Shown: one piece after another, positions 16,476-61,791 of the stretch
Layout: every line of letters begins with the position of its first letter
Position numbering within the stretch: the stretch's first letter is position 1
Assembly: GCA_963708025.1 (NCBI GenBank)
Contig: CAVPSB010000012.1
Location: forward strand, 64,001 to 128,000
Reading direction: 5' to 3'
Length of the DNA: 64,000 nt
DNA from: an uncultured Candidatus Rokubacteria bacterium
GTDB lineage: Bacteria > Methylomirabilota > Methylomirabilia > Rokubacteriales > DASRDR01
Position numbers and translations under genes: made by a program
The notes under the pieces: generated by a model
Told to the model about the DNA's origin: nothing
Database searches by the model: none
Seen by the model: the letters and a program-made list of their open reading frames with translations, nothing else

Positions 16476-17207
16476 TTGGATAGGGTCGCGCTGATCACCG
16501 GCGGGGCGCGGGGCATCGGCCGGGCGATCGGCCTGGAGCTGGCCCAGGCGGGGTGGTCGGTGGCCCTGTGCTACCGGACCAGCGAGGGCGCGGCCGCCGA
16601 GACCGCCGCCGCCATCGAGGCGGCCGGCGCCCGTGCGCTCGCGGTGCGGGCCGACGTCTCCGATCCCGCCGTCGCGGAGGCGCTCGTCCGCCAGGTGGAG
16701 ACGACGTGGGGGCGGATCGACGCGCTGGTCAACTGCGCCGGGCCGTTCCACAAGGTCGAGCTGCTGGAGGAGACCACGGCCGGCTGGCGCGAGATGATCG
16801 ACAACAACCTCCACCCCGTCTTCTACCTGAGCCGCGCCGTCGCCCCGGGCATGATGGCGCGGAAGTGGGGCCGGGTCCTCGCCTTCGCGATGGCGACCGC
16901 GGACCAGCTCACGGCCCAGACCAACGTCACCGCGCACTACATCGCCAAGGCCGGGATCCTCGTCCTGGTTCGCTCGCTGGCTCGGGTGCTGGGGCCGCAC
17001 GGGATCACCGTGAACGCGATCTCACCCGGCTTCATCGACTCCGGCGGGTCGGACCCGGCGGAGCTCCAGAAGATGGTGCCCCGCATCCCCGCCGGCTACG
17101 TCGGGAGCGTGGACGACGTGGCGGCGGCGGCCCGCTTCCTCCTCTCCGACGAGGCCCGGTACGTCAGTGGCACCAACATCCACGTGAGCGGCGGCTGGGG
17201 CGTGTAG
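16476..17207 (+). CDS. Short-chain dehydrogenase/reductase (FabG/TmpR-like, atypical active site)
   Basis: TGGARGIG, VNAISPGFI, NIHVSGG. Confidence 0.85.
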   Translation: MDRVALITGGARGIGRAIGLELAQAGWSVALCYRTSEGAAAETAAAIEAAGARALAVRADVSDPAVAEALVRQVETTWGRIDALVNCAGPFHKVELLEETTAGWREMIDNNLHPVFYLSRAVAPGMMARKWGRVLAFAMATADQLTAQTNVTAHYIAKAGILVLVRSLARVLGPHGITVNAISPGFIDSGGSDPAELQKMVPRIPAGYVGSVDDVAAAARFLLSDEARYVSGTNIHVSGGWGV

Positions 17208-17376
17208 GGGGCGGGGCCGATGAGCGTCGCAGGGCGTCGTCGTTCGGACGGCCTTCGGCCTTTGGGGTCGTCGCCCATCCTCGGCGTATGCGGCATACGC
17301 CTGCGGTGGGCGACTCCCTGCGTCGATTGGACGGCCTTCGGCCTGTGGGCCCTGCTCGCTCCTCGGCCCCGCCCCC
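17207..17376. repeat. ~170-nt nested palindrome (REPIN/MITE-like) carrying two 21-nt units
   Basis: GGGGGCGGGGCCGA..GCAGGGC / GCCCTGC..TCGGCCCCGCCCCC outer arms; inner GTCGCCCA/TGGGCGAC and GGCGTATGC/GCATACGCC. Confidence 0.8.
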
Positions 17377-17422
17377 GGGAGCTTGACTCACCTTTCGCCG
17401 ATCTGAGGCGTCAAGGACGCTA

Positions 17423-19801
17423 GTGGCCTTCGACCAGGGGCTTGGCATCCGCGTCGTCGACCTGGCCGGCCCTCCGGGGTTCTTCTGCGGCCGTCTGCTG
17501 GTTGGCCTCGGGGCGGAGGTCGTCCGCATCGAGCCGCCGGGAGGCGACTCGCTGCGCGCGGATCCCCTGGCCTTCGCCCACTGGCACGCCGGCAAGCGGT
17601 CGGTCGTGGTGGATCTCGAGACGTCGGAGGGCCGCGCCGCGCTGCTGGCGCTGGTCGTCACCGCGGACGTCCTGGTCGAGACGTTCCCCCAGGGCCACCT
17701 CGAGCGACTGGGTCTCGACCCGGCCACGCTGGGGGCGGCCCGGCCCGAGCTGATCGTGGTGTCGGTCACGCCGTTCGGCCGGATCGGTCCCCGGGCGGGC
17801 TGGGTCGGGACCGACCTCACGGCCGTCGCGCTCGGTGGGATGATGAGCCTCTGCGGCCACCCCGACGGCCCCCCGCTCCAGCCGCCCCGCGAGCAGGGCT
17901 ATCACCTCGCCGGCCTCAACGCGGCGATCGGCGCGCTGCTGGGACTTCGAGCCCGTCGGCTCACCGGACGGGGCCAGCCCGTTGACGTGTCGGTGCAGGA
18001 GGCGGTGGCGGCGACGCTGGAATATGGGGCGATCAGCTACATTCACGCGGGTGTCGTGCACCGGCGCCGCGGGAGCCGCTACCCGCACGTGCTCCACGGC
18101 CTCTTCCGCGCCCACGACGGGTACGTGGCGGGCGGCGTGAGCGGCAGCCCGCGCATGTGGCAGGGGCTGCTCGCCTGGATGCGGGAGACGGGGCGGGCGG
18201 GGGAGCTGGCCGACCCGCGGTGGGGCGACGAGGCGGTCCGTCTCGCCGAGCGCGAGCGCCTCTTCTCCTGCATCGAGGGCTTCACCGCGACCTTCGGTCG
18301 GGCCGAGTTCTGCGCGGAGGCGCAGCGCCGGCGGCTCCCCTGGGCGCCGGTCGAGCGTCCGGAGGACGTCGCGGCCAACCCGCAGCTCACCGCGCGGGGC
18401 TTCTTCGTGGACGTGGCCTGGAACGGCACCGTGGCCCGGGATGTCGGCTTCGCCTTCGCGTTCCCCGAGGGCCGGCGGCCGGCGCGGCTGACCGTGCCGG
18501 CGCCCGGCGAGGGGAACGGAAAGCTCGACGCGGTGAAGAGTCGGTCGGCGGTCCCGGCCCGGCAGAGCTCCGCCGGGCCTCGCGGGGCGCTGGCGGGGAC
18601 GCGGGTGCTCGACCTCACCTGGGTGCTGGCCGGCCCCTACGCGACCCGGATCCTCGCCGACCACGGCGCGGAGGTCATCAAGGTCGAGTCCCGTCACCGG
18701 CCCGATGCCTCGCGGTTCACCGCCGCGCTCCACATCTCACGCGATCCCGCGCGGCACCCGGACACCAGCGGGTACTTCAACAACTTCAACCGCAGCAAGC
18801 GGAGCCTCGCGCTCAACCTCGGTCGACCCGAGGGGGTGGACCTGCTGCGCCGCCTCTGTCGCGTGAGCGACGTGGTGATCGAGAACTTCAGCGCCGGCGT
18901 CCTGGCCAGGTGGGGCCTCGACCATGCCGGGCTGGCCGCGCTGCGTCCGGACATCGTGCTCGTCAGCATGGCCGGGATGGGCCACACCGGACCGTGGCGG
19001 GACCAGGTGACGTACGCCGACGCCGTCATGGCGATCGCCGGCCTCACCGCTCAGGCCGGCGTCCCCGGCCGGGACCCTGCCGGCTTCAGCTTCGGTCTCG
19101 GCGACATGATCGCCGGGGCCCACGCCGCGCTCGGAACGCTGGCCGCCCTCGAGTATCGCGACGCCACCGGGCGCGGCCAGCACGTGGACCTGTCCCAGGT
19201 GGAGGCGGTGGCCGCCCATCTCGGCACCGCGGTGCTCGAGGTGACCGCGGCCGGGCGGCGCCCCGAGCCATGGGGGAACCGACATCCCGCGATGGCGCCC
19301 CACGGCGCCTTCCCCTGCCGGGGCACGGATCGCTGGTGCGCGATCGCCGTCGAGGACGCCGCGCAGTGGGAGGCCCTGTGCGCGACGATGGGCCGGCCGG
19401 GGCTCGCCGCGGACCCCCGGTTTGCCACGCTGGCGGCGCGGAAGACCCACGAGGACGCGCTCGACGCGGACGTCGCGGCGTGGATGCGCCAGCACGCGGC
19501 CGAGGCGGTCATGGCCCGCTGCCAGGCGGCCGGCGTGCCGGCGGGCGTGGTCCAGGACGCCCGTGACCTCGTGGACCGCGATCCCCAGCTCCGGGCCCGC
19601 GGCTTCTACGAGGCGGCGACCCACCCGGTCGCCGGCGCGTTCCTGCACGAGGGCGTGGTGGCGCGGCTGGCGCTGACGCCGGGGCGCGTGTGGCACGCGG
19701 CGCCGCGGCTCGGCGAGCACACGCGCGAGGTCCTCACGGGCCTGCTCGACCTGAGCGACGCCGAGATCGACGGCTACGCCGCCGCCGGCGTGCTGGAGTG
19801 A
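17423..19801 (+). CDS. CoA-transferase family III, two fused CaiB/BaiF domains
   Basis: GIRVVDL...GAEVVRIEPPGGD and second GTRVLDLTWVLAGP...GAEVIKVES, APRLGEHT. Confidence 0.9.
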   Translation: MAFDQGLGIRVVDLAGPPGFFCGRLLVGLGAEVVRIEPPGGDSLRADPLAFAHWHAGKRSVVVDLETSEGRAALLALVVTADVLVETFPQGHLERLGLDPATLGAARPELIVVSVTPFGRIGPRAGWVGTDLTAVALGGMMSLCGHPDGPPLQPPREQGYHLAGLNAAIGALLGLRARRLTGRGQPVDVSVQEAVAATLEYGAISYIHAGVVHRRRGSRYPHVLHGLFRAHDGYVAGGVSGSPRMWQGLLAWMRETGRAGELADPRWGDEAVRLAERERLFSCIEGFTATFGRAEFCAEAQRRRLPWAPVERPEDVAANPQLTARGFFVDVAWNGTVARDVGFAFAFPEGRRPARLTVPAPGEGNGKLDAVKSRSAVPARQSSAGPRGALAGTRVLDLTWVLAGPYATRILADHGAEVIKVESRHRPDASRFTAALHISRDPARHPDTSGYFNNFNRSKRSLALNLGRPEGVDLLRRLCRVSDVVIENFSAGVLARWGLDHAGLAALRPDIVLVSMAGMGHTGPWRDQVTYADAVMAIAGLTAQAGVPGRDPAGFSFGLGDMIAGAHAALGTLAALEYRDATGRGQHVDLSQVEAVAAHLGTAVLEVTAAGRRPEPWGNRHPAMAPHGAFPCRGTDRWCAIAVEDAAQWEALCATMGRPGLAADPRFATLAARKTHEDALDADVAAWMRQHAAEAVMARCQAAGVPAGVVQDARDLVDRDPQLRARGFYEAATHPVAGAFLHEGVVARLALTPGRVWHAAPRLGEHTREVLTGLLDLSDAEIDGYAAAGVLE

Positions 19802-19803
19802 CG

Positions 19804-20571
19804 ATGCGCTTTCTCGAGATCGGGGTGGACGGTGGGGTGGCCACGGTCACGTTCGACCGCCCCCCGGTGAACGCGGTGGACCTCCAGGTCATCGACGACT
19901 TCCTGGCCATGGTGACCCGGCTCGGCGAGGACCGGTCGGTGCGGGCGGTCGTGCTGACCGGCGCCGGTCGCCGGTTCTGCGCGGGTGCGGACGTGTCGAT
20001 GATGCGCGATCTCTCGGCGGCCAACCACCGGAGGGTCCGCCGGTGGGTCGAGGTGCAGGCCGGCCTGGAGGCCATGCCGAAGCCGGTGATCGTGGCGATC
20101 AACGGCTACGCGCTCGGCGGTGGCGCCGAGCTGGCGCTGGCCGGCGACGTCCGCCTCATGGACGCGGACGCCCGGATCGGGTTCCCGGAGATCGAGCTGG
20201 GGCTGTTCCCCGGGGCCGGCGGCACCCAGCGTCTCTCCCGCCTCCTGGGCCCGGCCCGGGCCCTGGCCCTCATGATGGAGGGCCGGCGCCTCGGCGCCGA
20301 CGAGGCCGCCCGCCTGGGCCTGGTGGACCGCGTGCTGCCCGGCGAGCGCCTGCTGCCGGAGGCGCAGGCGTACGCGCGCACGCTGGCGACGCGCCCGACC
20401 CGGGCCATCGGCCTCCTCAAGCGCGCGGTCTACGGCGGGTGGGGCCGGCCGCTGGCCGATGGCCTGGAGGAGGAGGCGCGGGCCGTCTTCGAGCTGATCG
20501 AGACGGCCGATGCGCGGGAGGGCCTGACCGCGTTTCTGGAGAAACGGCCGCCCCGCTTCACCGGGACATGA
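19804..20571 (+). CDS. Enoyl-CoA hydratase/isomerase
   Basis: FCAGAD, NGYALGGGAEL, PEIELGLFPGAGGTQRL, AFLEKR. Confidence 0.9.
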   Translation: MRFLEIGVDGGVATVTFDRPPVNAVDLQVIDDFLAMVTRLGEDRSVRAVVLTGAGRRFCAGADVSMMRDLSAANHRRVRRWVEVQAGLEAMPKPVIVAINGYALGGGAELALAGDVRLMDADARIGFPEIELGLFPGAGGTQRLSRLLGPARALALMMEGRRLGADEAARLGLVDRVLPGERLLPEAQAYARTLATRPTRAIGLLKRAVYGGWGRPLADGLEEEARAVFELIETADAREGLTAFLEKRPPRFTGT

Positions 20572-20760
20572 GAGCGTGTGAAGGAATGGGGTCCTCCGGC
20601 TCCCCCCTCCCCCCGGTGCCCGCCGGAGGGACGGGACGTCGCGAGGGCCGTAGGCCCGAGCCGTCCCGGCGATCCGGTCAATCGGGAGGGGGGTTGGGGG
20701 GGTGGGCGGGAGGTCCCGAACTGAGATCTTCGGGGGGTCTGGGATCGCGAGAAGCCGATA
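20571..20760 (+). repeat. Family A repeat with an internal hairpin insert
   Basis: Family A ends flank CGCCGG..GACGG...GGGCCGTAGGCCC...CCGTCCCGGCG. Confidence 0.8.
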
Positions 20761-20918
20761 GACGACGATCCCGCTGACCCGGCGACGGCAAAAGCCCATG
20801 TTATCGTAACTGCCGTGGCGCGGCCGCAGCCCGAGTCGTCGATCGCCGGAGTCGCGCTCTCCGGGACCACCGGGGCGCGCGTGACGCTCGCGTGCCGGTA
20901 GGCGTGCCGCGCGGGCCG

Positions 20919-21686
20919 ATGAGGTCGATCGGCTGGCACCGGACGCTCCTGGTCCTCGCCCTCCTCGCCCTCTGGGAGGCGGCGACGCGCGCCCACTGGC
21001 TCGATCCCGATTTCTTCAGTCCGCCGACGAAGGTGGCGCAGGCGCTGGCCGGCCTCGCCACGCCGCCGATCCTGGCTGCCGCCCGGGTGACCGCGCTGGA
21101 GGTGGCCGCGGCCTTCGGGCTGGCCGCGGGGGTGGGGGTCGGCCTCGGCCTGGTGATCGGCCTGTCGCCGTTCGCCTACCGGACGTTCCGGCCGATCGTC
21201 CTCCTGCTCTTCTCGGTTCCGAAGATGGTCATGCTACCGCTCTTCATCCTGTTCTTCGGGATCGGGCTCACCTCCAAGGCCGTCTTCGCCTTCAGCCTGG
21301 GCGTCTTCCCGATCCTGCTCAACGTCATCGCCGGGACCCGCATGGTGGACCAGACCCTCCTGACCGCGGCCTACTGCATGGGGGCGAGCCGCCTCGCGCT
21401 CTTCGGGAAGGTGGTGCTGCCGGCCGCCCTGCCGTCGGTCATCACCGGGCTCCGGGTCGGCATGACCCAGACCGTGCTCGGCGTCCTGCTGGCCGAGCTG
21501 TACGCGGCCAACACCGGCCTGGGCTACTACGTGGAGCTCTACAGCCAGAGCTTCAAGCCCGCCCAGCTCTTCGCGCTGTTCTTCGCCGTCGCCGCCCTCT
21601 CGATCGTGGTGAACGAGGCGCTGCGGGCGATCGAGCGGTGGGCCGGCCGCTGGCGGGAAGAGGAAGCCGAGACGCCGGCGGCGTAG
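20919..21686 (+). CDS. NitT/TauT-family ABC permease
   Basis: VVLPAALPSVITGLRVG, AEL...GLG. Confidence 0.88.
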   Translation: MRSIGWHRTLLVLALLALWEAATRAHWLDPDFFSPPTKVAQALAGLATPPILAAARVTALEVAAAFGLAAGVGVGLGLVIGLSPFAYRTFRPIVLLLFSVPKMVMLPLFILFFGIGLTSKAVFAFSLGVFPILLNVIAGTRMVDQTLLTAAYCMGASRLALFGKVVLPAALPSVITGLRVGMTQTVLGVLLAELYAANTGLGYYVELYSQSFKPAQLFALFFAVAALSIVVNEALRAIERWAGRWREEEAETPAA

Positions 21687-21705
21687 CCGGTCCGGCGGCA
21701 CGCGC

Positions 21706-22518
21706 ATGATCGAGTTCCGGGACGTCGGGGTCGTCTATGCCGGCCAGGGCGGGCTCGGTGACGTCGAGGCCCTCCGGGGGGTGACGCTGACGATCGAGCG
21801 CGGCGAGCTCTTCTCGCTCATCGGCCCCAGCGGGTGCGGCAAGTCCACGCTGCTGAACCTGGCGGCCGGGCTTCGCCAGCCGACCTCCGGCACCGCGACG
21901 GTCTCGGGCCAGCCGATGGCCCGGCCGCGACCCGACACGATCGCGGTGGTTTTCCAGGACTACTCGCTCTTCCCCTGGCGCACGGTGGTCGGGAACATCG
22001 AGGCCGGCCTCGAGTTCCGGGGCGTGCCGCGCGACCAGCGGCGGGAGCGGGCGATGCGCTACCTCCGGATGGTGGGACTCGAGGCGTTCGCGGGGGCGGT
22101 GCCGCGCCAGCTCTCGGGCGGCATGAAGCAGCGGGTGGCGATCGCCCGCTCCCTGAGCCTGGAGACCCCGGTCCTGCTCATGGACGAGCCCTTCGGCGCC
22201 CTCGACGAGCAGACCCGCATGGTGCTCGGGGAGGAGGTCTCGCAGATCTTCGCCCAGACCCGGAAGACGATGCTGCTGGTGACTCACAGCCTGGCCGAGG
22301 CGGTGTTCCTGTCCGACCGGATCGCGGTGATGAGCGGCCGGCCGGGGCGGATCCGGGAGGTCATGGAGGTCCCGGCGCCGCACCCGCGCACCCCGGAGTT
22401 CATGACCTCCAAGGTCTTCCACGACCTCCGGGACCACATCTTCCGCCTGCTGCACGACGAGATGCGGGCCTCGGTTCTCGGCCGGGACCGCGGCGGCTTC
22501 GCAGCAGGCCGCTCATGA
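21706..22518 (+). CDS. NitT/TauT-family ABC ATPase
   Basis: GPSGCGKST, LFPWRTV, LSGGMKQR, MDEPFGALDEQTR. Confidence 0.92.
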   Translation: MIEFRDVGVVYAGQGGLGDVEALRGVTLTIERGELFSLIGPSGCGKSTLLNLAAGLRQPTSGTATVSGQPMARPRPDTIAVVFQDYSLFPWRTVVGNIEAGLEFRGVPRDQRRERAMRYLRMVGLEAFAGAVPRQLSGGMKQRVAIARSLSLETPVLLMDEPFGALDEQTRMVLGEEVSQIFAQTRKTMLLVTHSLAEAVFLSDRIAVMSGRPGRIREVMEVPAPHPRTPEFMTSKVFHDLRDHIFRLLHDEMRASVLGRDRGGFAAGRS

Positions 22519-22576
22519 GGGAACATGCGGATCACCCCGTTCGTTGCGGCTGGCATCCCGCCGCACCGGTACAGCG

Positions 22577-22675
22577 GGTCGCCCCCCCTCCCCCCGGCCA
22601 CAGGCCGAAGGCCGTCGAAGAATGGGGAGGGGTCGCCACAGGCCGAAGGCCGTCGAGGGGTGGGGGTGGTTTCGA
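22577..22675 (+). repeat. Family B G/C-tract scaffold with two inserted 21-nt units (22598-22618, 22636-22656)
   Basis: Deleting both CCACAGGCCGAAGGCCGTCGA copies gives a sequence co-linear with 36831-36890. Confidence 0.85.
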
Positions 22676-23455
22676 ATGACGCTCCGCAGGCCCGCTAACG
22701 CGCTCGGGCCGCTGGCGATCCAGGCCGGGACCCTGCTCGCCGTCCTGGTCGTCTGGCACCTGGCCACCGTCGCCCGCTCGCCGTGGACGCCGGTCTCGCC
22801 GCTCATCCTGCCCGGCCTCGGCCGGCTCGCGACCACGTTCGTCGCGCTGCTGGGCCGGGCCGACACCTACCACCACGTCGGGGTCACCGCGTACGAGTTC
22901 GCCGTCGCCATGCTGTTCGCCCTGTCGGCCGGCCTCGCCGTCGGCATCGTGGCTGGCACCGTCAAGTACGTGGGGGACCTCATCGAGCCGGTGCTGCTCG
23001 CGCTCTACGCCATCCCGATCGTCATGGCCTTTCCCTTCTGCATCCTTTTCCTGGGGATCGGTTCCGGCTCCAAGATCGCCTTCGGCGCGCTCTACGCCTT
23101 CTTCCCGGTGGCGATCCACACGCTCAAGGGCATCCGCCACGTCAACCGAGGGCTCATCCGGGCCGCCGTGTCGATGGGGGCCGGGCCCCGGCTCCTGCTC
23201 CTTCGGGTCTTGATCCCGGCCGCCTTCCCGGTCATCCTGACGGGCGTGCGCCTGGGCGCGGTCCTCGGCCTCCTCTCGGTGGTGGCCGGCGAGATGCTCG
23301 GAGCTTTGGAGGGCGTCGGGCAGATGCTGAAGCGAGCGGTCGAGGGCCTGGTGTCGGCGGAGGCCTTCGCCTGGATCCTGATCACGATCGTGATGGTGAC
23401 CCTGGTCGGCGGCACGCTGTCCTGGATCGAGCGCCGGCTGGAGTACGCGCGCTAA
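22676..23455 (+). CDS. NitT/TauT-family ABC permease
   Basis: LYAIP, AAVSMGA, VLIPAAFP, GEML. Confidence 0.88.
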   Translation: MTLRRPANALGPLAIQAGTLLAVLVVWHLATVARSPWTPVSPLILPGLGRLATTFVALLGRADTYHHVGVTAYEFAVAMLFALSAGLAVGIVAGTVKYVGDLIEPVLLALYAIPIVMAFPFCILFLGIGSGSKIAFGALYAFFPVAIHTLKGIRHVNRGLIRAAVSMGAGPRLLLLRVLIPAAFPVILTGVRLGAVLGLLSVVAGEMLGALEGVGQMLKRAVEGLVSAEAFAWILITIVMVTLVGGTLSWIERRLEYAR

Positions 23456-23482
23456 CCGAAGTCAACGCAAAAGGAGGTCCTC

Positions 23483-24472
23483 GTGCCACGCACGATTCGG
23501 AACCTGGCCGCTCTCGTCGCCGTCGGGGCGCTCGTCGCGGGCCTGGCCGCGGGCGCCGCCGGTCAGCCCAAGCCCCTGGGCAAGGTGACCCTGGGCCTGT
23601 CCGTCGCCAAGACCTTCGAGTTCCTGCCGGCCCACGCGGCCGACGACCTCGGCACCTGGACCAAGCGGGGCCTGGAGGTGTCCATCGTGGCGTTCCCGGG
23701 CGACGCCCGGCTCCAGCAGGCCTTCGCCGCCGGCGCCGTCGACTTCGGCCTGGGCTCGGCCAGCGGCGCCCTGGCGGCGATCTCCAAGGGGCTCGACACC
23801 CGGCTGATCGGGTCCATCAGCAACTCGGTCAAGCTGATGGGGCTGGTCGCCGCTCCCGAGATCAAGTCGAAGGAGGACCTCAAGGGCAAGACCATCGGCG
23901 CCACCAGCCCGAACGCGCTGACCGACATCCTGGTCAAGTACCTGTCGAAGAAGCTGACGGGGGACGCCGAGCGCGGGATCCGGCGCGCCCACCTGGGCGC
24001 CTTCCAGAACCAGGTGGCGGCGCTCAAGACCGGGCAGATCCAGGCCTTCGTCTGGACGCTGGAGGGGATCTTCGAGGTCGAGAAGCAGGGGGTGGGGAAG
24101 TATCTTCTCAGCTTCGGGGACGAGTTCCCGGACTTCCTCTTCGAGGTGATCATCGGCACCAAGAAGATGATCGACGAGAAGCCGGAGGTCGTCCGCGCCT
24201 TCCTGGAGGGCTGGTACGAGGCCCAGGCCCACATGAAGGCCAACAAGGACTACACGGTCGCGCTCTTCGAGCGGAAGATGGAGACGCCGCGGGACATCGG
24301 GGCCCGCGTATGGGACCTCGACCGCCTGACCTTCGTGGACGACGGGGTGTTCAGTGAGCCCGCCCTGCGCGCGGCCGCCCAGTCGCTGGTCGACACCGAG
24401 GTGCTCAAGGAGATCCCGCCGCTCGACCGGTGGGTCGAGAAGAAGTTCCTGCCCGTCCAGTGGAAGAAGTAG
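23483..24472 (+). CDS. NitT/TauT-family ABC substrate-binding protein
   Basis: SD AAGGAGG; signal peptide; IKSKEDLKGKTIG, PEVVRAF. Confidence 0.88.
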   Translation: MPRTIRNLAALVAVGALVAGLAAGAAGQPKPLGKVTLGLSVAKTFEFLPAHAADDLGTWTKRGLEVSIVAFPGDARLQQAFAAGAVDFGLGSASGALAAISKGLDTRLIGSISNSVKLMGLVAAPEIKSKEDLKGKTIGATSPNALTDILVKYLSKKLTGDAERGIRRAHLGAFQNQVAALKTGQIQAFVWTLEGIFEVEKQGVGKYLLSFGDEFPDFLFEVIIGTKKMIDEKPEVVRAFLEGWYEAQAHMKANKDYTVALFERKMETPRDIGARVWDLDRLTFVDDGVFSEPALRAAAQSLVDTEVLKEIPPLDRWVEKKFLPVQWKK

Positions 24473-24516
24473 CGGGGGGAAGCCCCCCGCCCGGTGCGGG
24501 CGGCCGGCGCTCCGAC

Positions 24517-26820
24517 GTGGCGCGCCAGCCGCCGCGGCCTCGGGAAGACCTGGAGCTCCTGACGGGGCGGGGCTGCTTCGTCGACGACCTCCACCGGGTC
24601 GGGATGCTCCACGGCGTCTTCGTCCGTTCCCCTCACGCCCACGCGCGCGTGGTCCGGGTGGATGGGACCGATGCCCTCCGGGCGGGGGCGGTCCTGGTCC
24701 TGACCGCCCCCGATCTGCCCTTCCGCACGCGGCGCCTCCTCGCCCGCCGCTGGCATCCCGCGATCCGCGGCGGCGCCCCGCCCGCGCTGGCCGAGGACCG
24801 CGTCCGCTACGTCGGGGAGGCGGTCGCGTTCGTGCTCGCCCCCGATCCCTACGCCGCCGCCGACCTCGCCGAGCGGGTGCGGGTGGAGTACGCCCCGCTC
24901 CCGGTCGTGGCCTCCCCCGAGGCCGCGGCCCGGCCGGACGCGCCGCCGCTCCACGCGGGCTGGGAGGGGAACGTCGCCGCGAGCTTCGAGCAGCGAGTCG
25001 GCGACGTGAGCGCGGCGCTCGCCGGCGCCGAGCGCCGCCTCCGGCGGCGCTTCCGGTTTCCCCGGCAGGCCCCGGTGCCGCTCGAGCCCCGCGGCGCCGT
25101 GGCCGAGGCGGCGGCGGGGGGGCCGGCGCTGACCGTCTGGGTCTCGAGCCAGGTGCCCTACCACGTCCGCGCCAACGTGGCGGCGCTCCTCGATCTCCCC
25201 GAGGACCAGGTGCGGGTGGTCGCCCCCCACGTCGGCGGGGGACTCGGGGCCAAGTCGCGTACCTACTGGGAAGAGGTCCTCGTGGCCTACGCGGCGCTCC
25301 GGCTCGGCCGCCCGGTCAAGTGGATCGAGGGCCGCTGCGAGCACATGCTCGCCACCGCGCACTCGCGGGACGTCGAGGTCGAGCTGGACCTCGGCTACAC
25401 CACCGAGGGCCGGCTCACCGCGCTGGACGCCCGCGTGGTCGTCGACGTGGGCGCCTACGTCCACGGCAACGGCATCATCACCGCGGAGGTCGTGGCCGCC
25501 CAGCTCCCCGGCCCCTACCGCCTGCCCCACTACCGGGCGCGGGTCTCGTGCGTGGGCACCAACAAGACCCCGCTCGGGACGTACCGGGGCGCCGGCCAGC
25601 CGGAGGCCACCTTCCCCCTCGAGCGGGCCCTGGATCTCGTCGCCAAGGACCTCGAACTCCCCCCGGAGGAGGTGCGCCGGCTCAATCTCCTCACCGCGCG
25701 CGACCTGCCCTACGCGTCGGGGACGACGCTGGCCGGTGTCCCGTCGCGTTACGACAGCGGCGACTTCCCGGCCGTCCTGGCGCGCGCCGTCGAGCTCGGA
25801 GGCCGGGCCGCCGGACGGGCGGAGACCGGGGAGCGCGTCGGCCAGGGCCTGGCTCTCGGACTCGAGGTCACCGGCTTCGGCAACCACGAGAGCGCGCTGG
25901 CGCGGATCGGGACCGACGGGCACGTCACGGTCTACTCGGGCTTGTGCACGCAGGGCCAGGGCCAGCCCACCACCTTCGCCCGGGTCAGCGCGGAGATCCT
26001 CGACGTCCCGCTCGAGGCCGTGACGGTGCGCATGGGCGACACGGCACTCCTGCCGTACGGCAAGGGGACCTTCGCCAGCCGCGGGGCCGTCCTGGGGGCC
26101 AGCGCGGTGGCCGAGGCCACCGCTCGGCTCCGCACGCGCGTGATCGCCGCCGCCGCCCGGCTCCTCGAGGCCCGACCGGACGACCTCGTGCTCGCCGGGG
26201 GACGGGTCCATCCACGCGGCAGCCCCGCCTCGGCGGTCACGCTGGCCGAGATCGCGCGCGCCGTCGCGCCGGGGGGCCCCCTGTTCGGCGGCGAGGGGGT
26301 CCTCGAGGCGACGTGCATCTTCGGCACCGAGGGGGATGCCGGCACCTACGCGCTCAGCGCCCACGTCGCCACCGTGGCGGTGACCCCGGAGACCGGCGAG
26401 TGCCGACTGCTCGACTACGCCGTCGTCCACGACGTCGGGCGGCGCCTGAGCCCGGAGATCGTCAACGGCCAGGTGCACGGCGGCGTGGTGGAGGGGCTGG
26501 GCGGCGCGCTCTGGGCGGAGTTCGCCTACGACGAGAGTGGCCAGCCGCGCGCCGGCACGCTGCTCGACTACGCGGTCCCTCGCGCGGAGGGGCTGCCACC
26601 CCTCCGGCTCGACCACCTGGAGACGCGGCCGACGACGAACCCGTGCGGCGTCCGCGGGGTGGGGGAGGGTGGGACGCTGCCGGTGGCCGCAGCCCTCGCG
26701 AACGCCATCGGCCGGGCGCTCGGCCCCGGGGTCCACGGCGGAGACGAGCTGCTCTGCACGCTGCCGCTCACGTGCGAGCGCGTGCGGGGGCCGGGCGGCG
26801 GAGGTGGCCGGGCAGATTGT
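24517..26820 (+). CDS. Xanthine dehydrogenase/CoxL-family molybdopterin-binding subunit (3' end uncertain, no nearby stop)
   Basis: REDLELLTGRG.FVDD, VRSPHAHA, VGGGLGAK, YRGAGQPEA, GQVHGG, RGVGEGG; homology ends near LPLTCERV (~26785). Confidence 0.85.
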
Positions 26821-26825
26821 TGCGC

Positions 26826-26894
26826 GGACCTCTCCGCCCACCCCCCCACCCCCCTCCCCCACCCACCGGGGGGGAGGGGGGAGTCGGAGGACCC
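26826..26894 (-). repeat. Family A repeat, reverse orientation
   Basis: Reverse complement GGGTCCTCCGACTCCCCCCTCCCCCCCGGTGGGTGGGGGAGGGGG...GGGCGGAGAGGTCC. Confidence 0.85.
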
Positions 26895-26904
26895 GGGTGG
26901 GCAG

Positions 26905-28269
26905 TCAGGTCCCGAAAACCCGGCAGAGCGCCATGAGGCCGCCCGGCGTCCCCGACGGCAGCGCGTCCACGGCCGCGGCCAGCCGCGCGACCGCGGGAGC
27001 CGGCAGGACGCGGCCGGCGGTCGCCTCGAACTTGGCGAGGAGTCGCTCGGCGGTCACCACGCCGTGGCCGGTCGCCTCGGCCGCCAGCGTGCGGCCGTCA
27101 CGAGTCTGGAGCGTGACGGCCCCCGCGAAGTCGTGGGCGACGTCGGCCGCCTCCGCGTGGCCGACGCGCGCGGCCATCGCCAGGAGGTCCGGCCGGCGGA
27201 TGGCGCCCTCCCCGAAGGTGTCGAGGTCCACCCGGCCGTCAACCAGCGCGGCCGCCAGCGCGAACGGGAGACTGGCCCGGGCCTGGTACTCGGTCTCGGG
27301 AGCGATCCGCGAGGCCCGGGGCTCGCAGACGATCGGGATCTGCCAGGGCGCCACCTGGCAGCGCACGGTCGCGATCGCGTCGGGCGCGAGCGCGTGCCGG
27401 CTCCGGAGGGCCAGGGCTGCGTCGAGAAAGGGATGGATCACGTGAGCGCACGGGTAGAGCTTGGGGAGGACCGCGCGGCTCGCCCATTCGCGGCCCAGGC
27501 CCCGCGTGACGGTGGCGAGGTCGGCCGCCTCGGCGCCGCCGAGGAAGGCCGCGTAGAGCCCGTGGCGGCCCTCGACCACCGAGACCGGCCCCGGAAAGCC
27601 GGCTGCGGCGAGCTGGCTCGCCACGATGCCGCCGTGGCCGGCCCAGCCGGGGTGGAGGCGCTTGGACCACGATCCGTCGGCGAGGAACTCGAGCAGCCCG
27701 CCCGCCATGCTGCCGGCGAGCCCCATCGCCTCGGCGGTCTGCCGCGACGCCAGGCCGGCCAGCTTCGCGGCGACCGCGGCGGCCACGAGGGGCCCCACGA
27801 CACCCGAGGCGTGGAACCCTCGGGCGTGGAGCCGCCGGCCGGCGGGCGCGCCGAGGCGCGCGGCCAGCTCGTACCCGGCGGCGATCGCCGCCAGGACCGC
27901 CGCGCCGTCGGTCCCGGCCGCCTCGCCCACGGCGAGGGCGGTGGGAACGACCAGGCTTCCCGGGTGGACGACCGGGGCAGGGAGCGTGTCGTCGAAGTCG
28001 AGAGCGTGGGCGAGGGTGCCGTGGGCGAGCGCGGCCCACGTGGCGGGGAGCCGCTCGGCCCGCCCGACGACGCTGGCCTCGGGCCGCCCACCCTGTCGCG
28101 TCGCGACTGCGAGCACCGCCCGCCCCGGGGGCTCATCGACCGCCGCCAGGATGACGCCGAGCGTGTCCAGGAGCCAGAGCCGGACCGCCGTCTGGTGGTC
28201 GGCCGTGAGATCCCCCCAGCGGAGCGCGCTGCTCCACTCCGCCAGCGTCAGGGCCAGTCGCTCCGCCAT
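26905..28269 (-). CDS. MmgE/PrpD family protein
   Basis: LDTLG, HGTLAHALDFDDT..HPG, KRLHPGWA, KLYPCAH; SD AGGAGG on minus strand. Confidence 0.88.
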   Translation of the reverse strand: MAERLALTLAEWSSALRWGDLTADHQTAVRLWLLDTLGVILAAVDEPPGRAVLAVATRQGGRPEASVVGRAERLPATWAALAHGTLAHALDFDDTLPAPVVHPGSLVVPTALAVGEAAGTDGAAVLAAIAAGYELAARLGAPAGRRLHARGFHASGVVGPLVAAAVAAKLAGLASRQTAEAMGLAGSMAGGLLEFLADGSWSKRLHPGWAGHGGIVASQLAAAGFPGPVSVVEGRHGLYAAFLGGAEAADLATVTRGLGREWASRAVLPKLYPCAHVIHPFLDAALALRSRHALAPDAIATVRCQVAPWQIPIVCEPRASRIAPETEYQARASLPFALAAALVDGRVDLDTFGEGAIRRPDLLAMAARVGHAEAADVAHDFAGAVTLQTRDGRTLAAEATGHGVVTAERLLAKFEATAGRVLPAPAVARLAAAVDALPSGTPGGLMALCRVFGT

Positions 28270-28291
28270 CGCCGGGGTTCCTCCTGAGCGG

Positions 28292-33288: not shown

Positions 33289-33343
33289 CCGGCTCCGCCC
33301 CGTAGCGCGGCGGCGCCGGCGCCGGGTAGAATGGAAGGCCCGA

Positions 33344-33404
33344 GAGAGCGTGCGCGTGAAGCAGTCGGTAGAGTAGGTGGAGGGGTGGGCGGGAGGTCTC
33401 GAAC
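33344..33404 (+). repeat. Degenerate family A repeat (ends only)
   Basis: GAGAGCGTG..GTGAAGCAGT and GGGGTGGGCGGGAGGTCTCGAAC; preceded by TAGAAT -10-like hexamer at 33327. Confidence 0.6.
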
Positions 33405-35264: not shown

Positions 35265-35380
35265 CCTGAACTGACGGTCCATCCGAGCATGCCGAGTCGC
35301 GTTCAGTGTGAGGTGGGCCGTGAAGAGCCTCCGAGCGGCGGCCCAAAGGCCGAAGGCCGTCCAATGGCCGCCGCCACGAC

Positions 35381-35420
35381 GGGGGGGCATCGGGGGGGTC
35401 TTCCGAGACTCCCCCGAAGG
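35381..35420 (+). repeat. Family C repeat GGGGGGG..CGGGGGGGTCTTCCGAGACTCCCCCGAAGG
   Basis: Near-identical reverse-complement copy at 40761-40800; a 21-nt unit lies just upstream at 35343-35363. Confidence 0.75.
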
Positions 35421-35427
35421 AGGCGGC

Positions 35428-36748
35428 ATGACTAGCGGGCCCGGCGAGACCCTGCTCCGCTTCGTGGTCGAGGCACGCGACGAGGAGCTGCCGAAGGCCG
35501 CCCTCGAGCACGCCCGGCTGGCGGTGCTCGACTGGTGGGGCGTCACCGTCGGCGGCGCCGACGAGCCGGTGGCGCGCATCCTGCGAGAGACCGTGGGCGC
35601 GCCGCCGGGCCCGTCCGCCGTTCTGGGCACCCCGCACGCGACCACACCGCTGACCGCCGCGCTCCTGAACGGCACCGCGTCCCACGCCCTCGACTACGAC
35701 GACGTCACGCTCGCGGTGCCGGGTCACCTGACGGCCCCACTCCTGCCGGGCCTCCTCGCCGTCGCGGAGGCCCGCGGGCTCGGCGGCCGGTCGCTTCTCA
35801 CGGCCTTCGTCCTGGGCGTCGAGGTGGCCTCGCGGGTGGCGCGGGCGCTGGCGCCGGGGCACTACCGGGCCGGCTGGCACGCCACCGCGACGGTCGGCCG
35901 CCTGGGCGGCGCCGCCGCCGTCGGGCGCCTCCTCGGACTCGACGGGGCGCGGCTCGAGGCCGCGATCGGGCTCGCCGCTGTCCAGGCCGGCGGGATCCAG
36001 GAGGCCTTCGGCAGCATGGCCAAGCCCTTCCAGGTCGGGCGGGCGGCCGCCGACGCTCTCCTCGGCGCGCTCGCCGCGGAGGGCGGGATGACGGGACCAC
36101 GGGCCATCCTCGACCGCGAGGGCTGGGCCCGCCGACTCTCCCCGGCCTGGGAGCCCACGCGCCTGACCGAGGACCTGGGGCGCCGCTACGCCGTCGGCGA
36201 GCTCCACTTCAAGCGCTACCCCTGCTGCTTCGCCACCCACGCGGCCATCAGCGGCCTCCTGGCCCTGCGCGCCGCCGTGCCCGCCGATCGGGCGATCGAG
36301 GCCGTCGAGCTGGAGGTCTCGCCCACCACGCTCCAGGTGGCCGACCAGCGGAGGCCGAGCACGGGGCTCGGCGGCAAGTTCAGCGTCACCTACTGCGCCG
36401 CCGCCGCCCTCCTGCGCGGCCGGGTCAGCGAGGCTGACTTCGCCGACGCGGCCGTGACCGAGCCCGCCGCCCAGGCGCTGGCCGCGCGGGTCGCGCTCGT
36501 CGCCAACCCCGCCCTCGACGAGACCCGCGCGCACGTCCGCGTGCGTCTGGCCGGCGGCGAGACCCGCGAGCGGCTGGCCGACCTCGCGGCCGAGAGCGAC
36601 GCGGACGGAATGCGCCGCGATCTCACGGCGAAGTTCCGCGACCTGGTCGCGCCCCGGCTGGGGGACGCGGCCACCGAGCGACTTCACGCCGCGCTCGAGT
36701 CGCTCGACGAAGCTCGACGACCTGCGCGAGCTGACCCGCATCCGATGA
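35428..36748 (+). CDS. MmgE/PrpD family protein (probable +1 indel near 36710)
   Basis: LNGTASHALDYDD, GWHATAT, KRYPCCFATH, KFS..Y; corrected end LDDLRELTRIR*. Confidence 0.85.
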
Positions 36749-36830
36749 GACCGACTCCCCGGTGGTCACGCGGGACGTCTCGAGGAAGGCCGCCGGCCAC
36801 TGGTACGTCCAGGATCGACGGGATTCGGAC

Positions 36831-36887
36831 GGTCGCCCCCCCTCCCCCCGGCGGGTGGGGAGGGGTCGGGGGTGGGGGTGGATCCAA
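36831..36887 (+). repeat. Family B G/C-tract scaffold, empty form
   Basis: GGTCGCCCCCCCTCCCCCCGG-CGGGTGGGGAGGGGTCG-GGGGTGGGGGTGG. Confidence 0.8.
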
Positions 36888-38975
36888 ATGACCGTCGATC
36901 TCACCCCGCTGTTCGTGCCGCGCCGGGTGGCCGTGCTCGGCGTGTCGCGAAACCCCGAGAAGCTGGGGCACCGGCTCCTCCAGAACCTCCTCGAGGCGGG
37001 CTTTCCCGGCGAGGTGGTGCCCGTGAACCCGAGCGGCGAGGCCATCCGGGGGATAAAGAGCGTGGCGCGGGTGGCCGACATCCCCGGCGAGCTCGACCTG
37101 GCACTGGTGAGCCTGCCGGCCGCCGCCGTCGTGGGGGCGGTGGGCGAGCTGGGGGACCTGGGCTGTCGCGCCGCCGTCGTGCTGGCCTCCGGCTTCGGCG
37201 AGACCGGGGAGGCCGGCCGGGCACTTCAGCGGGAGCTGGCGGCCATCGCGCGGTCGAGCGGGATGCGGATCGTCGGCCCGAACTGTATGGGCGTCGTCAA
37301 CGTGCCGGGTCGGCTCAACGGCTCCTACTTCTGGAACGCGCCGCGGGAGGCGGGCGGGATCACCTTCGTCTCCCAGAGCGGCGCCTACGGCGGCCTCTTC
37401 TTCCGTGAGGTGCGCGCCCGCGGCCTCGGCGTGGCCAAGTTCCTCTCCATCGGGAACCAGGCCGACCTCGGGTTCGTCGAGTGCCTCGACTGGCTGGCCG
37501 GCGATCGCGACACCCGCGTGGTCGCGCTGTTCGTCGAGGGGATCCGGGACGGCCGCGGCTTCGTGGAGGCCGCCGGCCGGCTGTCCGCCGCGAAGCCGGT
37601 CGTCGCCTTCAAGGTCGGGCGGGGGAGCGCCGGCACCCGGGCGGCCGGCTCCCACACCGGCTCGCTCGCCGGCGCCTACGAGACCTACCTGGCGGCGTTC
37701 GCCGCGGCCGGCGTGGTGGTGACCGGCGACACCGAGGAGTTCTTCGACGCCATCGTCGCCCTCGATGCCGACGGCGGCCGCCCGCCGCAGGACGACGGCG
37801 TCGCCATCCTCACGGTGTCCGGCGGGCCATCGGTCGCTGCCGCCGACGCGGCGGAGGCCGCCGGGCTCCGGGTGCCGCAGCTCCCCGACCCGCGCCGCCG
37901 GCAGCTCCGGGCCCACCTGCCGGGCTTCGGCGCCGACGGGAACCCGGTGGACATGACCCCCCAGATGGAGCCGGCCGCCTTCGGTCCGGCGATCCGGCTC
38001 GTCCTCGAGGCCGACGAGGTGGCCGGGGTGATCGCGATCGACGTCGGGCTGGACGTGCCGGCGTACGGCGAGGCCGTCGTGGCCGCTCAGGCGGCCACCG
38101 GCAAGCCCGTCGTCGCCTGTACCGCGGACACGCCGGGCGTGGACGCGCGACTCCGCGCGGCCGGCATCCCGATCTTCCCGACCCCGGAGCGCGCGGTGCG
38201 CGCGTACCGCGCCCTGCGGGCCCGCGCGGTCGCCGGATCGCGGGCGCGGCCGATCCCCGCTCGCGCGGTCCCGCGGGCGCTCCCCGCCTCGATCGCGGAG
38301 CCCCTCCGGCGGGCCGAGGGGCCGCTCCCCTACGACGTGGCTCGGGCCCTCCTCGGTCACTACGGGATCGCGTTCCCCGAGGAGGGCCTGGCGACCTCGG
38401 CGGAGGAGGCCTGCTCGGTCGCCGCCCGGATCGGCTACCCAGTGGTGGTGAAGACGGCCAGCGCCGCCGTCCTGCACAAGACGGACGCGGGCGGGGTCGT
38501 TCTCGGCATCGGCGACGATGCGGCCCTCCGCGAGGCCTGTCGCGCGCTGGCCACCCGGTTCGGCCCGGCGCCGGTTCTCGTGCAGCGGCAGGTCGATGGC
38601 GGACTCGAGCTGCTCGTCGGAGGCCGCCGCGATCCGGTGTTCGGCCCCACGGTCCTCTTCGGGCTCGGCGGCGTCCTGACCGAGATCCTGCGGGACGTCT
38701 CGCTGCGGCTGGCCCCGCTCGACGCGGCGGAGGCGCGGGCCATGCTGCGGGAGGGACGACGGGCGGCCCTGCTCGGCGGCTTTCGCGGACGGCCGGCCTG
38801 CGACGAGTCCGCGCTGGTGGCGGCGCTGACGGGAGTCGGGGATCTCCTGGCCGAGCATCCGGAGATCGTGGAGCTGGACGTGAACCCGCTCATCGCGCGG
38901 GGCGCGCAGGTGGTCGCCGTGGACGCGCTGGTGATCGTCGACCGAACCAACCAAGGAGGGAACGATGGGGCGTGA
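36888..38975 (+). CDS. Acetate--CoA ligase (ADP-forming) family, CoA-binding plus ATP-grasp domains
   Basis: GPNCMG, SQSGA, AGSHTGSLAG (phospho-His), HKTDAGGV, ELDVNP. Confidence 0.9.
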   Translation: MTVDLTPLFVPRRVAVLGVSRNPEKLGHRLLQNLLEAGFPGEVVPVNPSGEAIRGIKSVARVADIPGELDLALVSLPAAAVVGAVGELGDLGCRAAVVLASGFGETGEAGRALQRELAAIARSSGMRIVGPNCMGVVNVPGRLNGSYFWNAPREAGGITFVSQSGAYGGLFFREVRARGLGVAKFLSIGNQADLGFVECLDWLAGDRDTRVVALFVEGIRDGRGFVEAAGRLSAAKPVVAFKVGRGSAGTRAAGSHTGSLAGAYETYLAAFAAAGVVVTGDTEEFFDAIVALDADGGRPPQDDGVAILTVSGGPSVAAADAAEAAGLRVPQLPDPRRRQLRAHLPGFGADGNPVDMTPQMEPAAFGPAIRLVLEADEVAGVIAIDVGLDVPAYGEAVVAAQAATGKPVVACTADTPGVDARLRAAGIPIFPTPERAVRAYRALRARAVAGSRARPIPARAVPRALPASIAEPLRRAEGPLPYDVARALLGHYGIAFPEEGLATSAEEACSVAARIGYPVVVKTASAAVLHKTDAGGVVLGIGDDAALREACRALATRFGPAPVLVQRQVDGGLELLVGGRRDPVFGPTVLFGLGGVLTEILRDVSLRLAPLDAAEARAMLREGRRAALLGGFRGRPACDESALVAALTGVGDLLAEHPEIVELDVNPLIARGAQVVAVDALVIVDRTNQGGNDGA

Positions 38976-51752: not shown

Positions 51753-52010
51753 GTCGATTGACGGCCTCCGGCCTGTGGCGGACGGCCTTCGGCCTGGGGG
51801 CGGACGTCCCGGCCTATGGTCGTCCTCGGTCGTCGACGGGCCTCCCGCAAGGGAGCGACGCCCGGAGGGCCGAAGGCCCGGAGCGTCGCGACCAGGTGGT
51901 CAATCGCGGCATACGCCTCGGCCCGCCTCCTCCCTGCGTCGATTGGACGGCCTTCGGCCTGTGGCGGACGGCCTTCGGCCTGAGGGGGCTGCTCGGGTCT
52001 CGGCCCGGTA
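51753..52010. repeat. Intergenic repeat cluster with two head-to-tail dimers of the 21-nt unit
   Basis: Units at 51758-51778, 51779-51799, 51944-51964 and 51965-51985; scaffold similar to 17290-17370. Confidence 0.85.
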
Positions 52011-61703: not shown

Positions 61704-61791
61704 TTCCTCCGGCCCCCCTCCCCCCAGTGGGTGGGGGAGGGGGCCAAAGGCCGAAGGCCGTCGACGGATCGGGTGGGCGGGAGGTCCCGAA
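61704..61791 (+). repeat. Family A repeat with one inserted 21-nt unit (61744-61764)
   Basis: TTCCTCCGGCCCCCCTCCCCCC...GGGGGAGGGGG[CCAAAGGCCGAAGGCCGTCGA]...GGGCGGGAGGTCCCGAA. Confidence 0.8.

Follow-up and report, generated by a model that had tools for sequence, protein, structure and literature searches.

A hairpin of 21 nucleotides stands twice, in identical form, inside one intergenic repeat at positions 22577–22678 of the window (the whole 64,000-nucleotide stretch analysed here, C12:64001-128000 of genome G000), and the question raised by this locus is how so short a unit arrived in a repeat that also exists without it. The multiplication of very short bacterial repeats, REPs included, is an open question, and to our knowledge single REPs are thought to be immobile. 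A preliminary description of the locus had proposed a very small non-autonomous element that inserts cleanly into other repeats and is mobilised by an HUH enzyme encoded elsewhere. The material assembled below leads us to see in the 21-mer, with the scales about evenly balanced, an optional hairpin module in a lineage-specific system of mosaic intergenic repeats.

Genome and scope of the searches

The genome measures 8.17 Mb in 49 contigs, with 71.2% G+C, a completeness of 99.67% and a contamination of 8.18%. Genes were predicted with our own crude codon-usage caller, whose 5075 genes cover 62% of the genome, and which therefore under-calls genes. Genome G038 is counted among the relatives in the tallies; it has no match to the unit, and no claim depends on it. 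The best public read runs contain a fraction of 0.26–0.38 of the sampled words, and the contigs of four runs over 17100–37000 all break at repeats, so that 22577–22678 and 36831–36890 are unbridged. A narrow search of the literature on intergenic repeats in Rokubacteria found no prior description of these repeats.

A filled repeat and its empty counterpart

The repeat lies on the plus strand between two ATGA tetranucleotides. At the left one (22515..22518) TGA is the stop of gene 21706..22518 and ATG the start of a mini-frame, and at the right one (22676..22679) ATG is the start of gene 22676..23455 and TGA the stop of the mini-frame, which is open over 54 codons from the ATG at 22515 to the last TGA at 22679, across the whole element. 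The scaffold, of the kind termed family 1 below, begins with a 5' part (22519..22576) that is a diverged version of the head GACACCCTGTGTCAAC..., and continues with the C-rich arm GGTCGCCCCCCCTCCCCCCGG of the scaffold hairpin (22577..22597), unit 1 in the apical loop of that hairpin, or site 1 (22598..22618), the bases AGAA, either a loop remainder or a module tail (22619..22622; CGGG in empty copies and in the orthologue L062), and a first G-rich arm TGGGGAGGGGTCG complementary to the C-rich arm (22623..22635). Unit 2 occupies site 2 between the two G-rich arms (22636..22656), and the second G-rich arm GGGGTGGGGGTGG with TTTCGA forms the 3' end of the scaffold (22657..22675). Unit 1 is missing in L062, and unit 2 represents an exact 21-nt difference relative to both L062 and 36831–36890.

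As the preliminary description had stated, CCACAGGCCGAAGGCCGTCGA is found exactly at 22598–22618 and 22636–22656, the two units being identical. Its further statement that removing both leaves a scaffold co-linear with 36831–36890 also holds: 22577–22678 without the units amounts to 60 nt, 54 of which are identical to the 60 nt of 36831–36890, with the parts in the same order and no target duplication at the joints. The string it gave includes the ATG and so ends at 22678 rather than 22675. The counterpart at 36745..36891 (plus strand; arms at 36831–36880, ATGA at 36745 and 36888) is a family-1 scaffold with both sites empty, and its 'empty' stretch 36831–36890 sits in the 3' end of ORF 35308..36891.

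All ten units that had been listed for the window were recovered at 0–3 mismatches, on both strands, against a mean of 0.01 in 100 shuffles, none of which reaches ten. They had been called intergenic, which is correct by the gene caller for 10/10, with the qualification that the filled element lies inside the open 54-codon mini-frame. Besides the two at the present locus, units at 17245–17265 and 17328–17348 (minus strand, 17245..17348) stand 83 nt apart and fill sites 2 and 1, respectively, in a family-3 element that has inverted-repeat ends and runs antisense to the neighbouring genes, and a unit at 35343..35363 (plus strand) lies in the loop of a GGCGGC/GCCGCC hairpin, a fourth host context whose 5' flank, CGCGGC, has 32 occurrences in the genome. 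In a family-2 scaffold with occupancy (0,1), site 2 is taken by a unit at 61744..61764 (plus strand) and site 1 is empty. Two dimers on the minus strand, at 51758..51799 in a family-3-like site-3 context and at 51944..51985 in a CAGCCC context, had been taken for exact head-to-tail repeats; the 21-nt spacing is indeed exact, and the partner units are not identical, differing at 2 (51758/51779) and 1 (51944/51965) of their first 19 positions.

The 21-nucleotide unit across the genome

A genome-wide search of both strands for the 21-mer, suggested in the preliminary description, returned 642 sites within four mismatches of the consensus CCAAAGGCCGAAGGCCGTCCA, against 8 sites in the reversed genome, every one of these at 4 mismatches. 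Predicted coding sequences fully enclose 38 of the 642, though they make up 62% of the genome, and the 15-mer core of the unit has 501 copies. A logo of 510 copies gives the layout CCAMA-GGCC-GAA-GGCC-GTCSR, a stem-loop GGCC-GAA-GGCC with a single 4-bp stem. Its 5' edge is sharp, position -1 being C or G only with little conservation before it, and its 3' boundary is less well defined: 82% of copies have A at position 21, G, W, C and G recur at positions 24–27, and a semi-conserved tail A-W-S-G-A-Y-C usually follows. The length of 21 nt equals exactly seven codons. Predicted folding of the unit as DNA gave no gain over shuffles (z within -0.05 to -1.3), the special stability of GAA triloops being absent from the folding parameters used.

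The proposal that the unit sits in several scaffolds is borne out, in that a sharply bounded block recurs in several unrelated repeat contexts, with about eleven fixed positions in at least three host families and one orientation per host. Families 1 and 2 are related, MIRU-like cassettes in sense orientation, with 91 and 363 loci found by regular expression, and both are sequence-unrelated to family 3. Family 1 (...GCG-CCCCCCCTCCCCCC-GG[U]..GGT-GGGGAGGGGTCG[U].G-GGTGGGGGTGG-ACCCGA-ATGA, where U marks the unit) brings the downstream start codon, and family 2 (CTCCGGCT-CCCCCCTCCCCCC-GG[U]ACGGT-GGGGGAGGGGGG[U]AGGATC-GGGTGGGCGGGAGGTCCCGAAC) brings a GGGAGG ribosome-binding site. The elements of family 3, which end in inverted repeats (GGGGCGGGGCCGAGGAGCG...), hold up to four units and adjoin TAG stop codons; a search for a long autonomous parent between such inverted ends found only irregular pairs 0.4–5 kb apart.

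Occupancy is variable in all three. Written as units at site 1 and site 2, the 91 family-1 loci divide into (0,0) 46, (1,0) 16, (0,1) 4, (1,1) 22, (1,2) 1 and (3,1) 2, with 69 loci with short loops checked by eye, and the 363 family-2 loci into (0,0) 224, (1,0) 61, (0,1) 22, (1,1) 50, (1,2) 5 and (0,2) 1. Among 155 complete family-3 elements, 0, 1, 2, 3 and 4 units are present in 55, 52, 41, 6 and 1 copies, respectively, none of them inverted. The module sits only where the host hairpins should be single-stranded, in an apical loop or at a helix bulge or junction. Neighbouring units less than 200 nt apart (196 pairs) fall mainly into spacings of 37–39 nt (81 pairs, the class to which 22598/22636 belongs), 83 nt (41) and 20–21 nt (25), and only two of the 196 are inverted. 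Tandem arrays comprise 23 dimers and one trimer genome-wide, and 7 of the dimers have identical cores and 16 are heterotypic. Unique flanks on both sides are found for 21 of 641 units, about half of which are doubtful 4-mismatch matches inside genes.

Gain and loss in place

Comparison of filled with empty sites shows that the module comes and goes in place, as a block of exactly 21 nt. For family-1 site 2 the difference between the two forms is precisely 21 nt. Family-2 site 1 is GG-U-TGGGT in some copies, an exact match to the empty GG-TGGGT, and GG-U-ACGGT in most, while site 2 is G-YTGGGG when empty and G-U-AGGATC when filled, the GGATC form never occurring without the unit in 53 cases (two that lack an intact core carry degenerate units). 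Family-3 site 2 reads GAG in 103 copies, against the unit plus AAC in 42 or plus AAG in 7. In view of these flank swaps the module consists of 21 nt together with a semi-conserved tail that replaces 3–6 host bases. The net length change is nonetheless +21 at every host site, and +42 in four of the five family-2 (1,2) copies. The preliminary claim of precise, duplication-free insertion is thus confirmed in that one unit makes a difference of exactly 21 nt between filled and empty scaffolds, with no duplicated target, and its word 'cleanly' applies to the family-1 sites and to some family-2 site-1 copies, adjoining bases being replaced at two host sites and the 3' edge being soft. Occupancy is tied only weakly to scaffold similarity: among 321 clean family-2 copies out of 363, the nearest neighbour of a scaffold is in the same occupancy class in a fraction of 0.51, versus 0.43 when permuted (maximum 0.54).

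Empty orthologous sites, whose existence bears directly on the preliminary proposal, were found at one locus with two sites. A metagenome scan with the downstream protein located L062 (86% protein identity), which has the same two genes and, between two ATGA, the same family-1 scaffold with both unit sites empty: CGGG stands in the loop, and GGGGTCG is directly followed by GGGGTGGGGG. The direction of the change between L062 and G000 is not polarised. The closest orthologue, L061 (92% protein identity), is without the whole scaffold. The junction in G003 (79% protein identity), tried as a further empty-site test, was set aside, as it holds an unrelated spacer of ~95 nt.

Unit and scaffold have separate histories, as their distribution among relatives makes plain. 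Of 251 genomes searched in the phylum, only G000 (501 copies) and those of genus g5 (14 of 15 genomes, 7–68 copies) are rich in the unit, the others having 0–2 copies. The family-2 tail (≤2 mismatches) numbers 388 in G000 and 0–6 elsewhere, against 0–3 in controls, with g5 at background level; the family-1 signature has 19 occurrences in G000 and one in G002, and is missing from all 15 g5 genomes. Although without the unit, G002 possesses the empty scaffold between GTGA and ATGA, and empty inner hairpins occur in 1–3 copies in five relatives. Since unit and scaffold are thus found apart in sister genera, the unit entered the scaffolds secondarily.

Spread with the hosts

Once inside a host, the unit has for the most part been carried along: the majority of the ~640 copies multiplied passively with their hosts. 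Eleven 5'-flank classes hold 495 of 641 units, and within these 495 (the remaining 146 being left out of the test) the context shares 0.50 bit of mutual information with unit positions 2–3, where 2000 permutations give 0.09 on average and 0.146 at most. Positions 2–3 are AC in 54/82 units at family-3 site 1, AA in 45/56 at family-3 site 2, CC in 19/39 at family-3 site 3 and AA in 73/83 at family-2 site 2. With variants so context-specific, most copies must have multiplied together with their hosts, and the proposal that the unit 'targets other repeats' becomes indistinguishable from its travelling with them. Orientation relative to genes likewise tracks the host (sense to antisense 55:6 in family 1, 233:36 in family 2 and 18:99 in family 3), and therefore no strand rule of the unit itself is visible.

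Operon junctions and the mini-frame

The hosts of families 1 and 2 are placed on stop/start overlaps. TGA directly precedes the family-1 head in 19/19 copies and the family-2 head in 134/266, against a background of 1%, and the 3' end of either family is CCCGAA(C)-TGA, in many copies as ATGA. The mini-frame of the filled locus is also open in L062 (116 nt), and in the empty copy 36745..36891, where it is continuous with ORF 35308..36891. Core family-1 copies are in register and open in 15/20 cases with a recognisable head, or 15/23 by predicted gene ends, counts that are not an independent statistic since these copies are related by descent. In family 2 no frame enrichment was found (11/39 in frame), and run-length changes of 1–2 nt are common there. 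Six of eight orthologous junctions (L061, L063, L064, L065, L066 and L068) show a bare GTGA/ATGA overlap, and in L067 two ATGA enclose another element.

In genus g5 the unit forms the head of a ~57-nt cassette, xTGAGC-unit-ATCAACTCCCGCGGAGC..CCCAG-TGAGC. Of 32 units examined there, 22 are near xTGA, 12 of these 22 at a distance of 6, and 13 of the 22 lie in a mini-frame from the left start to the right xTGA, as in VSPQAEGRPINSRGPRVPS. A unit of seven codons thus offers a selective reason why only 3n changes would survive in such cassettes; as family 2 is without frame constraint, this argument explains the constant +21 only in part.

How new copies may arise

Templated copying between near-identical repeats is the account we favour over transposition, giving the former about even chances and regarding the latter as somewhat unlikely. 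The template of a new unit would be a nearby or paralogous copy, used in short-patch gene conversion or in template switching between the hundreds of near-identical arms; slippage would produce the tandem copies, and selection would retain only such changes as leave the host hairpin intact and, in family 1, preserve the 3n length of the mini-frame. A dedicated transposase would be unnecessary. Weak signs of local copying are seen among 81 pairs, in three of which the two units of an element share a rare core variant where 0.52 such cases are expected (P=0.008), and in the identity of the two units at 22598 and 22636. The fixed positions of the unit, its multiplication with the hosts, the replaced flanking bases, the turnover in place, the separate histories and the open mini-frame of family 1 likewise favour this account. 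Against templated copying stand the short guiding arms, of just 12–20 nt, a constant xTGAGC flank in g5 that resembles a target preference, and the fact that one orthologous locus is comparable, and that unpolarised, while the frame argument fails in family 2. Simple slippage sits poorly with the 16/23 tandem dimers that combine different unit variants, and homology-driven copying does not explain the first entry into sequence-unrelated hosts (families 1/2 versus 3). We identified neither a conversion tract nor a donor copy.

The alternative closest to the preliminary description is a non-autonomous mobile mini-element whose hairpin is inserted by an HUH or other enzyme into single-stranded loops, which we regard as rather doubtful. 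A sharp 5' edge, the exact 21-nt difference at family-1 sites and in those family-2 site-1 copies with an intact TGGGT, the presence of all occupancy combinations alongside an orthologous empty site, residence in unrelated hosts, an origin before the scaffold bloom, the often heterotypic dimers and the constant g5 flank all fit such an element, and PMC3733652 offers a precedent in GTAG-23 of Thermomicrobium roseum. The postulated HUH mobilisation nonetheless found no backing. A search for Y1 transposases (PF01797, E≤0.01) gave 0 matches in this 99.67%-complete genome and was positive in six control genomes; as a metagenome-assembled genome can miss a single-copy, repeat-flanked gene, this absence is not proof. 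Genus g5 has one or two Y1 genes in four of seven genomes searched (e.g., a 313-aa ORF, L047 1459..2400), but the hairpin core GGCCGAAGGCC (≤1 mismatch) was absent within ~1.5 kb of the five g5 Y1 loci, and the other three genomes (G008, G011 and G012), without a Y1 gene, yet carry 10–12 units each. One unrelated GGCCGAGGGCC lies inside a gene near a g5 Y1 locus. The insertion-site consensus that the preliminary description had hoped to derive did not emerge either, 5' hexamers in G000 being diverse (CCCCGG 85, CAGCGC 82, GGGGGG 57, ACGACC 56, and others) with no conserved 5' target. Solo copies in unique DNA are almost absent, unit variants are strongly context-specific, adjoining bases are replaced at two host sites, and the unit has one 4-bp hairpin, not two distinct ends. 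A broader form of the same idea, that the hairpin itself is a mobile cassette smaller than any described transposable unit, written without duplication into exposed loops by a non-Y1 enzyme or by repair or replication copying, is in our estimate likewise somewhat unlikely; were it true, the seven-codon length would let a mobile cassette ride inside translated coupling cassettes at operon junctions.

Two further readings shift the weight from gain to loss or to function. If the filled forms were ancestral, replication slippage across the stable hairpin, or its excision, would remove the hairpin precisely and leave the empty forms, a reading we hold to be very unlikely. Hairpins are deletion-prone, the direction between L062 and G000 is not polarised, and the closer L061 is without the scaffold that the more distant L062 has, a pattern that fits loss unless there were separate insertions. 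Empty scaffolds are, however, the majority (224/363 and 46/91) and occur in unit-free sister genera such as that of G002, no flanking direct repeats would yield the observed empty junctions, and deletion cannot convert AGGATC to YTGGGG, or AAC to GAG. The unit may instead be kept as a functional motif, tuning the sequestration of a ribosome-binding site in a 5' leader or binding a host protein, with its spread reflecting selection rather than mobility; this reading, compatible with any of the mechanisms, strikes us as quite unlikely. Consistent with it, family-1 and family-2 hosts lie in sense directly upstream of start codons, 155/265 family-2 copies end less than 40 nt from a predicted start, CCTCC pairs with GGGAGG in the family-2 arms, and units in the loop and bulge would change helix stacking; an excess of C>T in the C arm over G>A in the G arm (53 versus 23, P=0.0075) fits as well, because G-U pairs are tolerated in sense-strand RNA. 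In family 3, however, the unit is on the opposite transcript strand, so that a sequence-specific RNA role would not be common to all hosts, and most scaffolds are without the unit. The single-sequence RNA folds predicted for elements with and without units do not improve on shuffles (z -0.05 to -1.3), an RNAalifold run with 80 empty and 49 doubly filled copies of family 2 returned no compensatory double changes and ambiguous registers, and Rfam 15 at the gathering score gave no match in the whole window.

Implications

The repeats described here form a clean system, in which one 21-nt block occupies about eleven acceptor positions in three host families without a Y1 transposase, and in which a single genome offers filled and empty paralogues by the hundred, next to at least one orthologous filled/empty pair. 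This combination makes templated copying versus enzyme-driven insertion directly testable with strain-resolved long reads. A natural insertion series is preserved as well, from the bare overlap through the empty cassette to the cassette with two units. The repeats matter for gene calling because they supply start codons and C-terminal tails, and they bear on how operon translation may be tuned.

Comparison with known systems

IS200/IS605 elements are moved by a Y1 TnpA, have two different subterminal hairpins, and require a fixed target of four or five nucleotides on the 5' side of their left end. As an element of the kind invoked in the preliminary description, the unit would be like them and their miniature derivatives (PATEs) in leaving no target duplication, in hairpin recognition and in strand polarity, but has no TnpA, one hairpin only and diverse 5' flanks; the xTGAGC before the g5 unit is a constant flank, but is there the head of a longer cassette.

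Short, extragenic, palindromic and present in high copy number, the unit belongs with REP-type repeats, and it shares with REPs and REPINs a size of 20–40 nt, a GC-rich, hairpin-forming sequence, an extragenic location and hundreds of copies per genome. It differs from them in that a RAYT gene is missing in G000 and in that nearly all copies are nested in a larger repeat. REPINs are inverted doublets by definition (PMC3337134), whereas the units here are direct, with 2/196 neighbouring pairs inverted and 0 in the 155 family-3 elements. By the account in PMC3733652, REPs have an unpaired GTAG/CGTC head and a stem of ~8–9 bp; such a head is absent at the right position here and the stem is 4 bp, and identity with a CGTC-REP was rejected because neither the place of the tag nor the stem length nor the tail fits. 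The sequence CCAC, complementary to GTGG, stands on the wrong side of the hairpin, and CCAA is more common than any other variant. The same source also describes the T. roseum GTAG-23 REPs within small palindromes that also occur empty, and CGTC REPs without a dedicated transposase, so that nested and enzyme-less REP-like repeats have precedent.

The host scaffolds, as opposed to the 21-mer, resemble MIRUs, which PMC12548453 describes as operon-junction repeats in gene orientation, inserted at start codons, whose internal ORF is coupled downstream by a -4 overlap. The likeness lies in the ATGA at both ends, the open mini-frame and the bare-overlap orthologues, and is carried by family 1, with its co-oriented genes, stop/start overlaps and internal coupling ORF, and not by family 2, where the frame constraint is missing. 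A tandem array of five copies, with a period of 100 nt, at C2:216183-216582 is a further point of likeness. The scaffolds belong to a different phylum, have no sequence relation to MIRUs and possess long C-arm/G-arm hairpins. They extend the MIRU principle, with the overlap rebuilt and a read-through frame carried, to an uncultured soil lineage. We know of no nested optional hairpin module in MIRUs.

The BIMEs of Escherichia coli and the BOX elements of Streptococcus pneumoniae are composite intergenic repeats built of few modules in fixed order, some of them optional or variable in number, with subfamilies that differ by the presence of internal motifs. Families 1–3 show the same construction, a fixed module order with internal modules that are optional or variable in number. 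They are distinguished from BIMEs and BOX elements by the lack of any sequence relation, by hosts placed on stop/start overlaps, and by one optional 21-nt hairpin that is common to three host families.

Repeat unit and G-rich arms

Together with the GG that precedes it, the 21-nt hairpin unit at window positions 22596-22618 resolves into three 7-nt GGCCNNN periods (GGCCAAA GGCCGAA GGCCGTC), a periodicity also seen in tandem arrays elsewhere in the genome, for example at position 74809 of a second contig, C2. Since GGCC is self-complementary, several alternative hairpins, as well as pairings between units, are possible on the basis of the sequence. In g5, the sister genus carrying the unit, half-units (CCACAGGCCG; GGCCGTCCGATC) occur as symmetrical duplicates flanking the loop. 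At 22623-22669 and 36856-36880, the G-rich arms (GGGG-A-GGGG-TCG-GGGG-T-GGGGG) yield a predicted canonical four-run G-quadruplex motif, located just upstream of a start codon, and in the former the second unit interrupts it between runs 2 and 3.

Gene junctions and protein ends

A single operon junction (window 22515-22679, compared with orthologous metagenome loci L061-L068) offers a natural insertion series. Six orthologues display a bare gene overlap by GTGA or ATGA, L062 carries the family-1 cassette without units between two ATGA, the genome under study carries this cassette with two units, and in L067 two ATGA flank a different element. The cassette is absent from the closest orthologue (L061, 92% protein identity of the downstream gene) and present in the more distant L062 (86%). 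Elsewhere in the window, the upstream ORF (35308-36891) continues in frame into the 'empty' scaffold, so that this ORF seems to stop at the terminal TGA of the cassette and to acquire a repeat-encoded C-terminal tail (...VAPPPPGGWGGVGGGGGSK). At the opposite protein end, in g5 loci L021 and L017, the unit lies immediately 3' of ATGAGC or GTGAGT, where long ORFs begin, and reads as residues 3-9 (PQAEGRP / SQAEGRP); judging from these reading frames, it is a repeat-derived seven-residue N-terminal insertion in real proteins.

Larger host repeats

Family 3, exemplified in the window at 17208-17422 and also found genome-wide, is bounded by inverted repeats of about 20 nt, and its 155 complete genomic copies fall into size classes spaced about 20-25 nt. 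These elements lie between co-directional genes, antisense relative to the unit orientation. In 78 of the 155, the family-3 end is followed at offset 1 by CTA, a TAG stop read in reverse, despite TGA being the commoner stop codon (3207 vs 1603 predicted genes).

Among the 270 of 363 family-2 copies genome-wide that show no more than one change in either arm, C>T in the C-rich arm outnumbers G>A in the G-rich arm (53 vs 23, an about twofold difference in per-site frequency, P=0.0075), hinting that G-U pairs may be tolerated in a sense-strand RNA. Outside the window, C2:216183-216682 holds five to six head-to-tail family-2-like cassettes with a period of 100 nt, each terminating in CCCGAATGA, a VNTR-like arrangement resembling the VNTR-like arrays of mycobacterial interspersed repetitive units (MIRUs).
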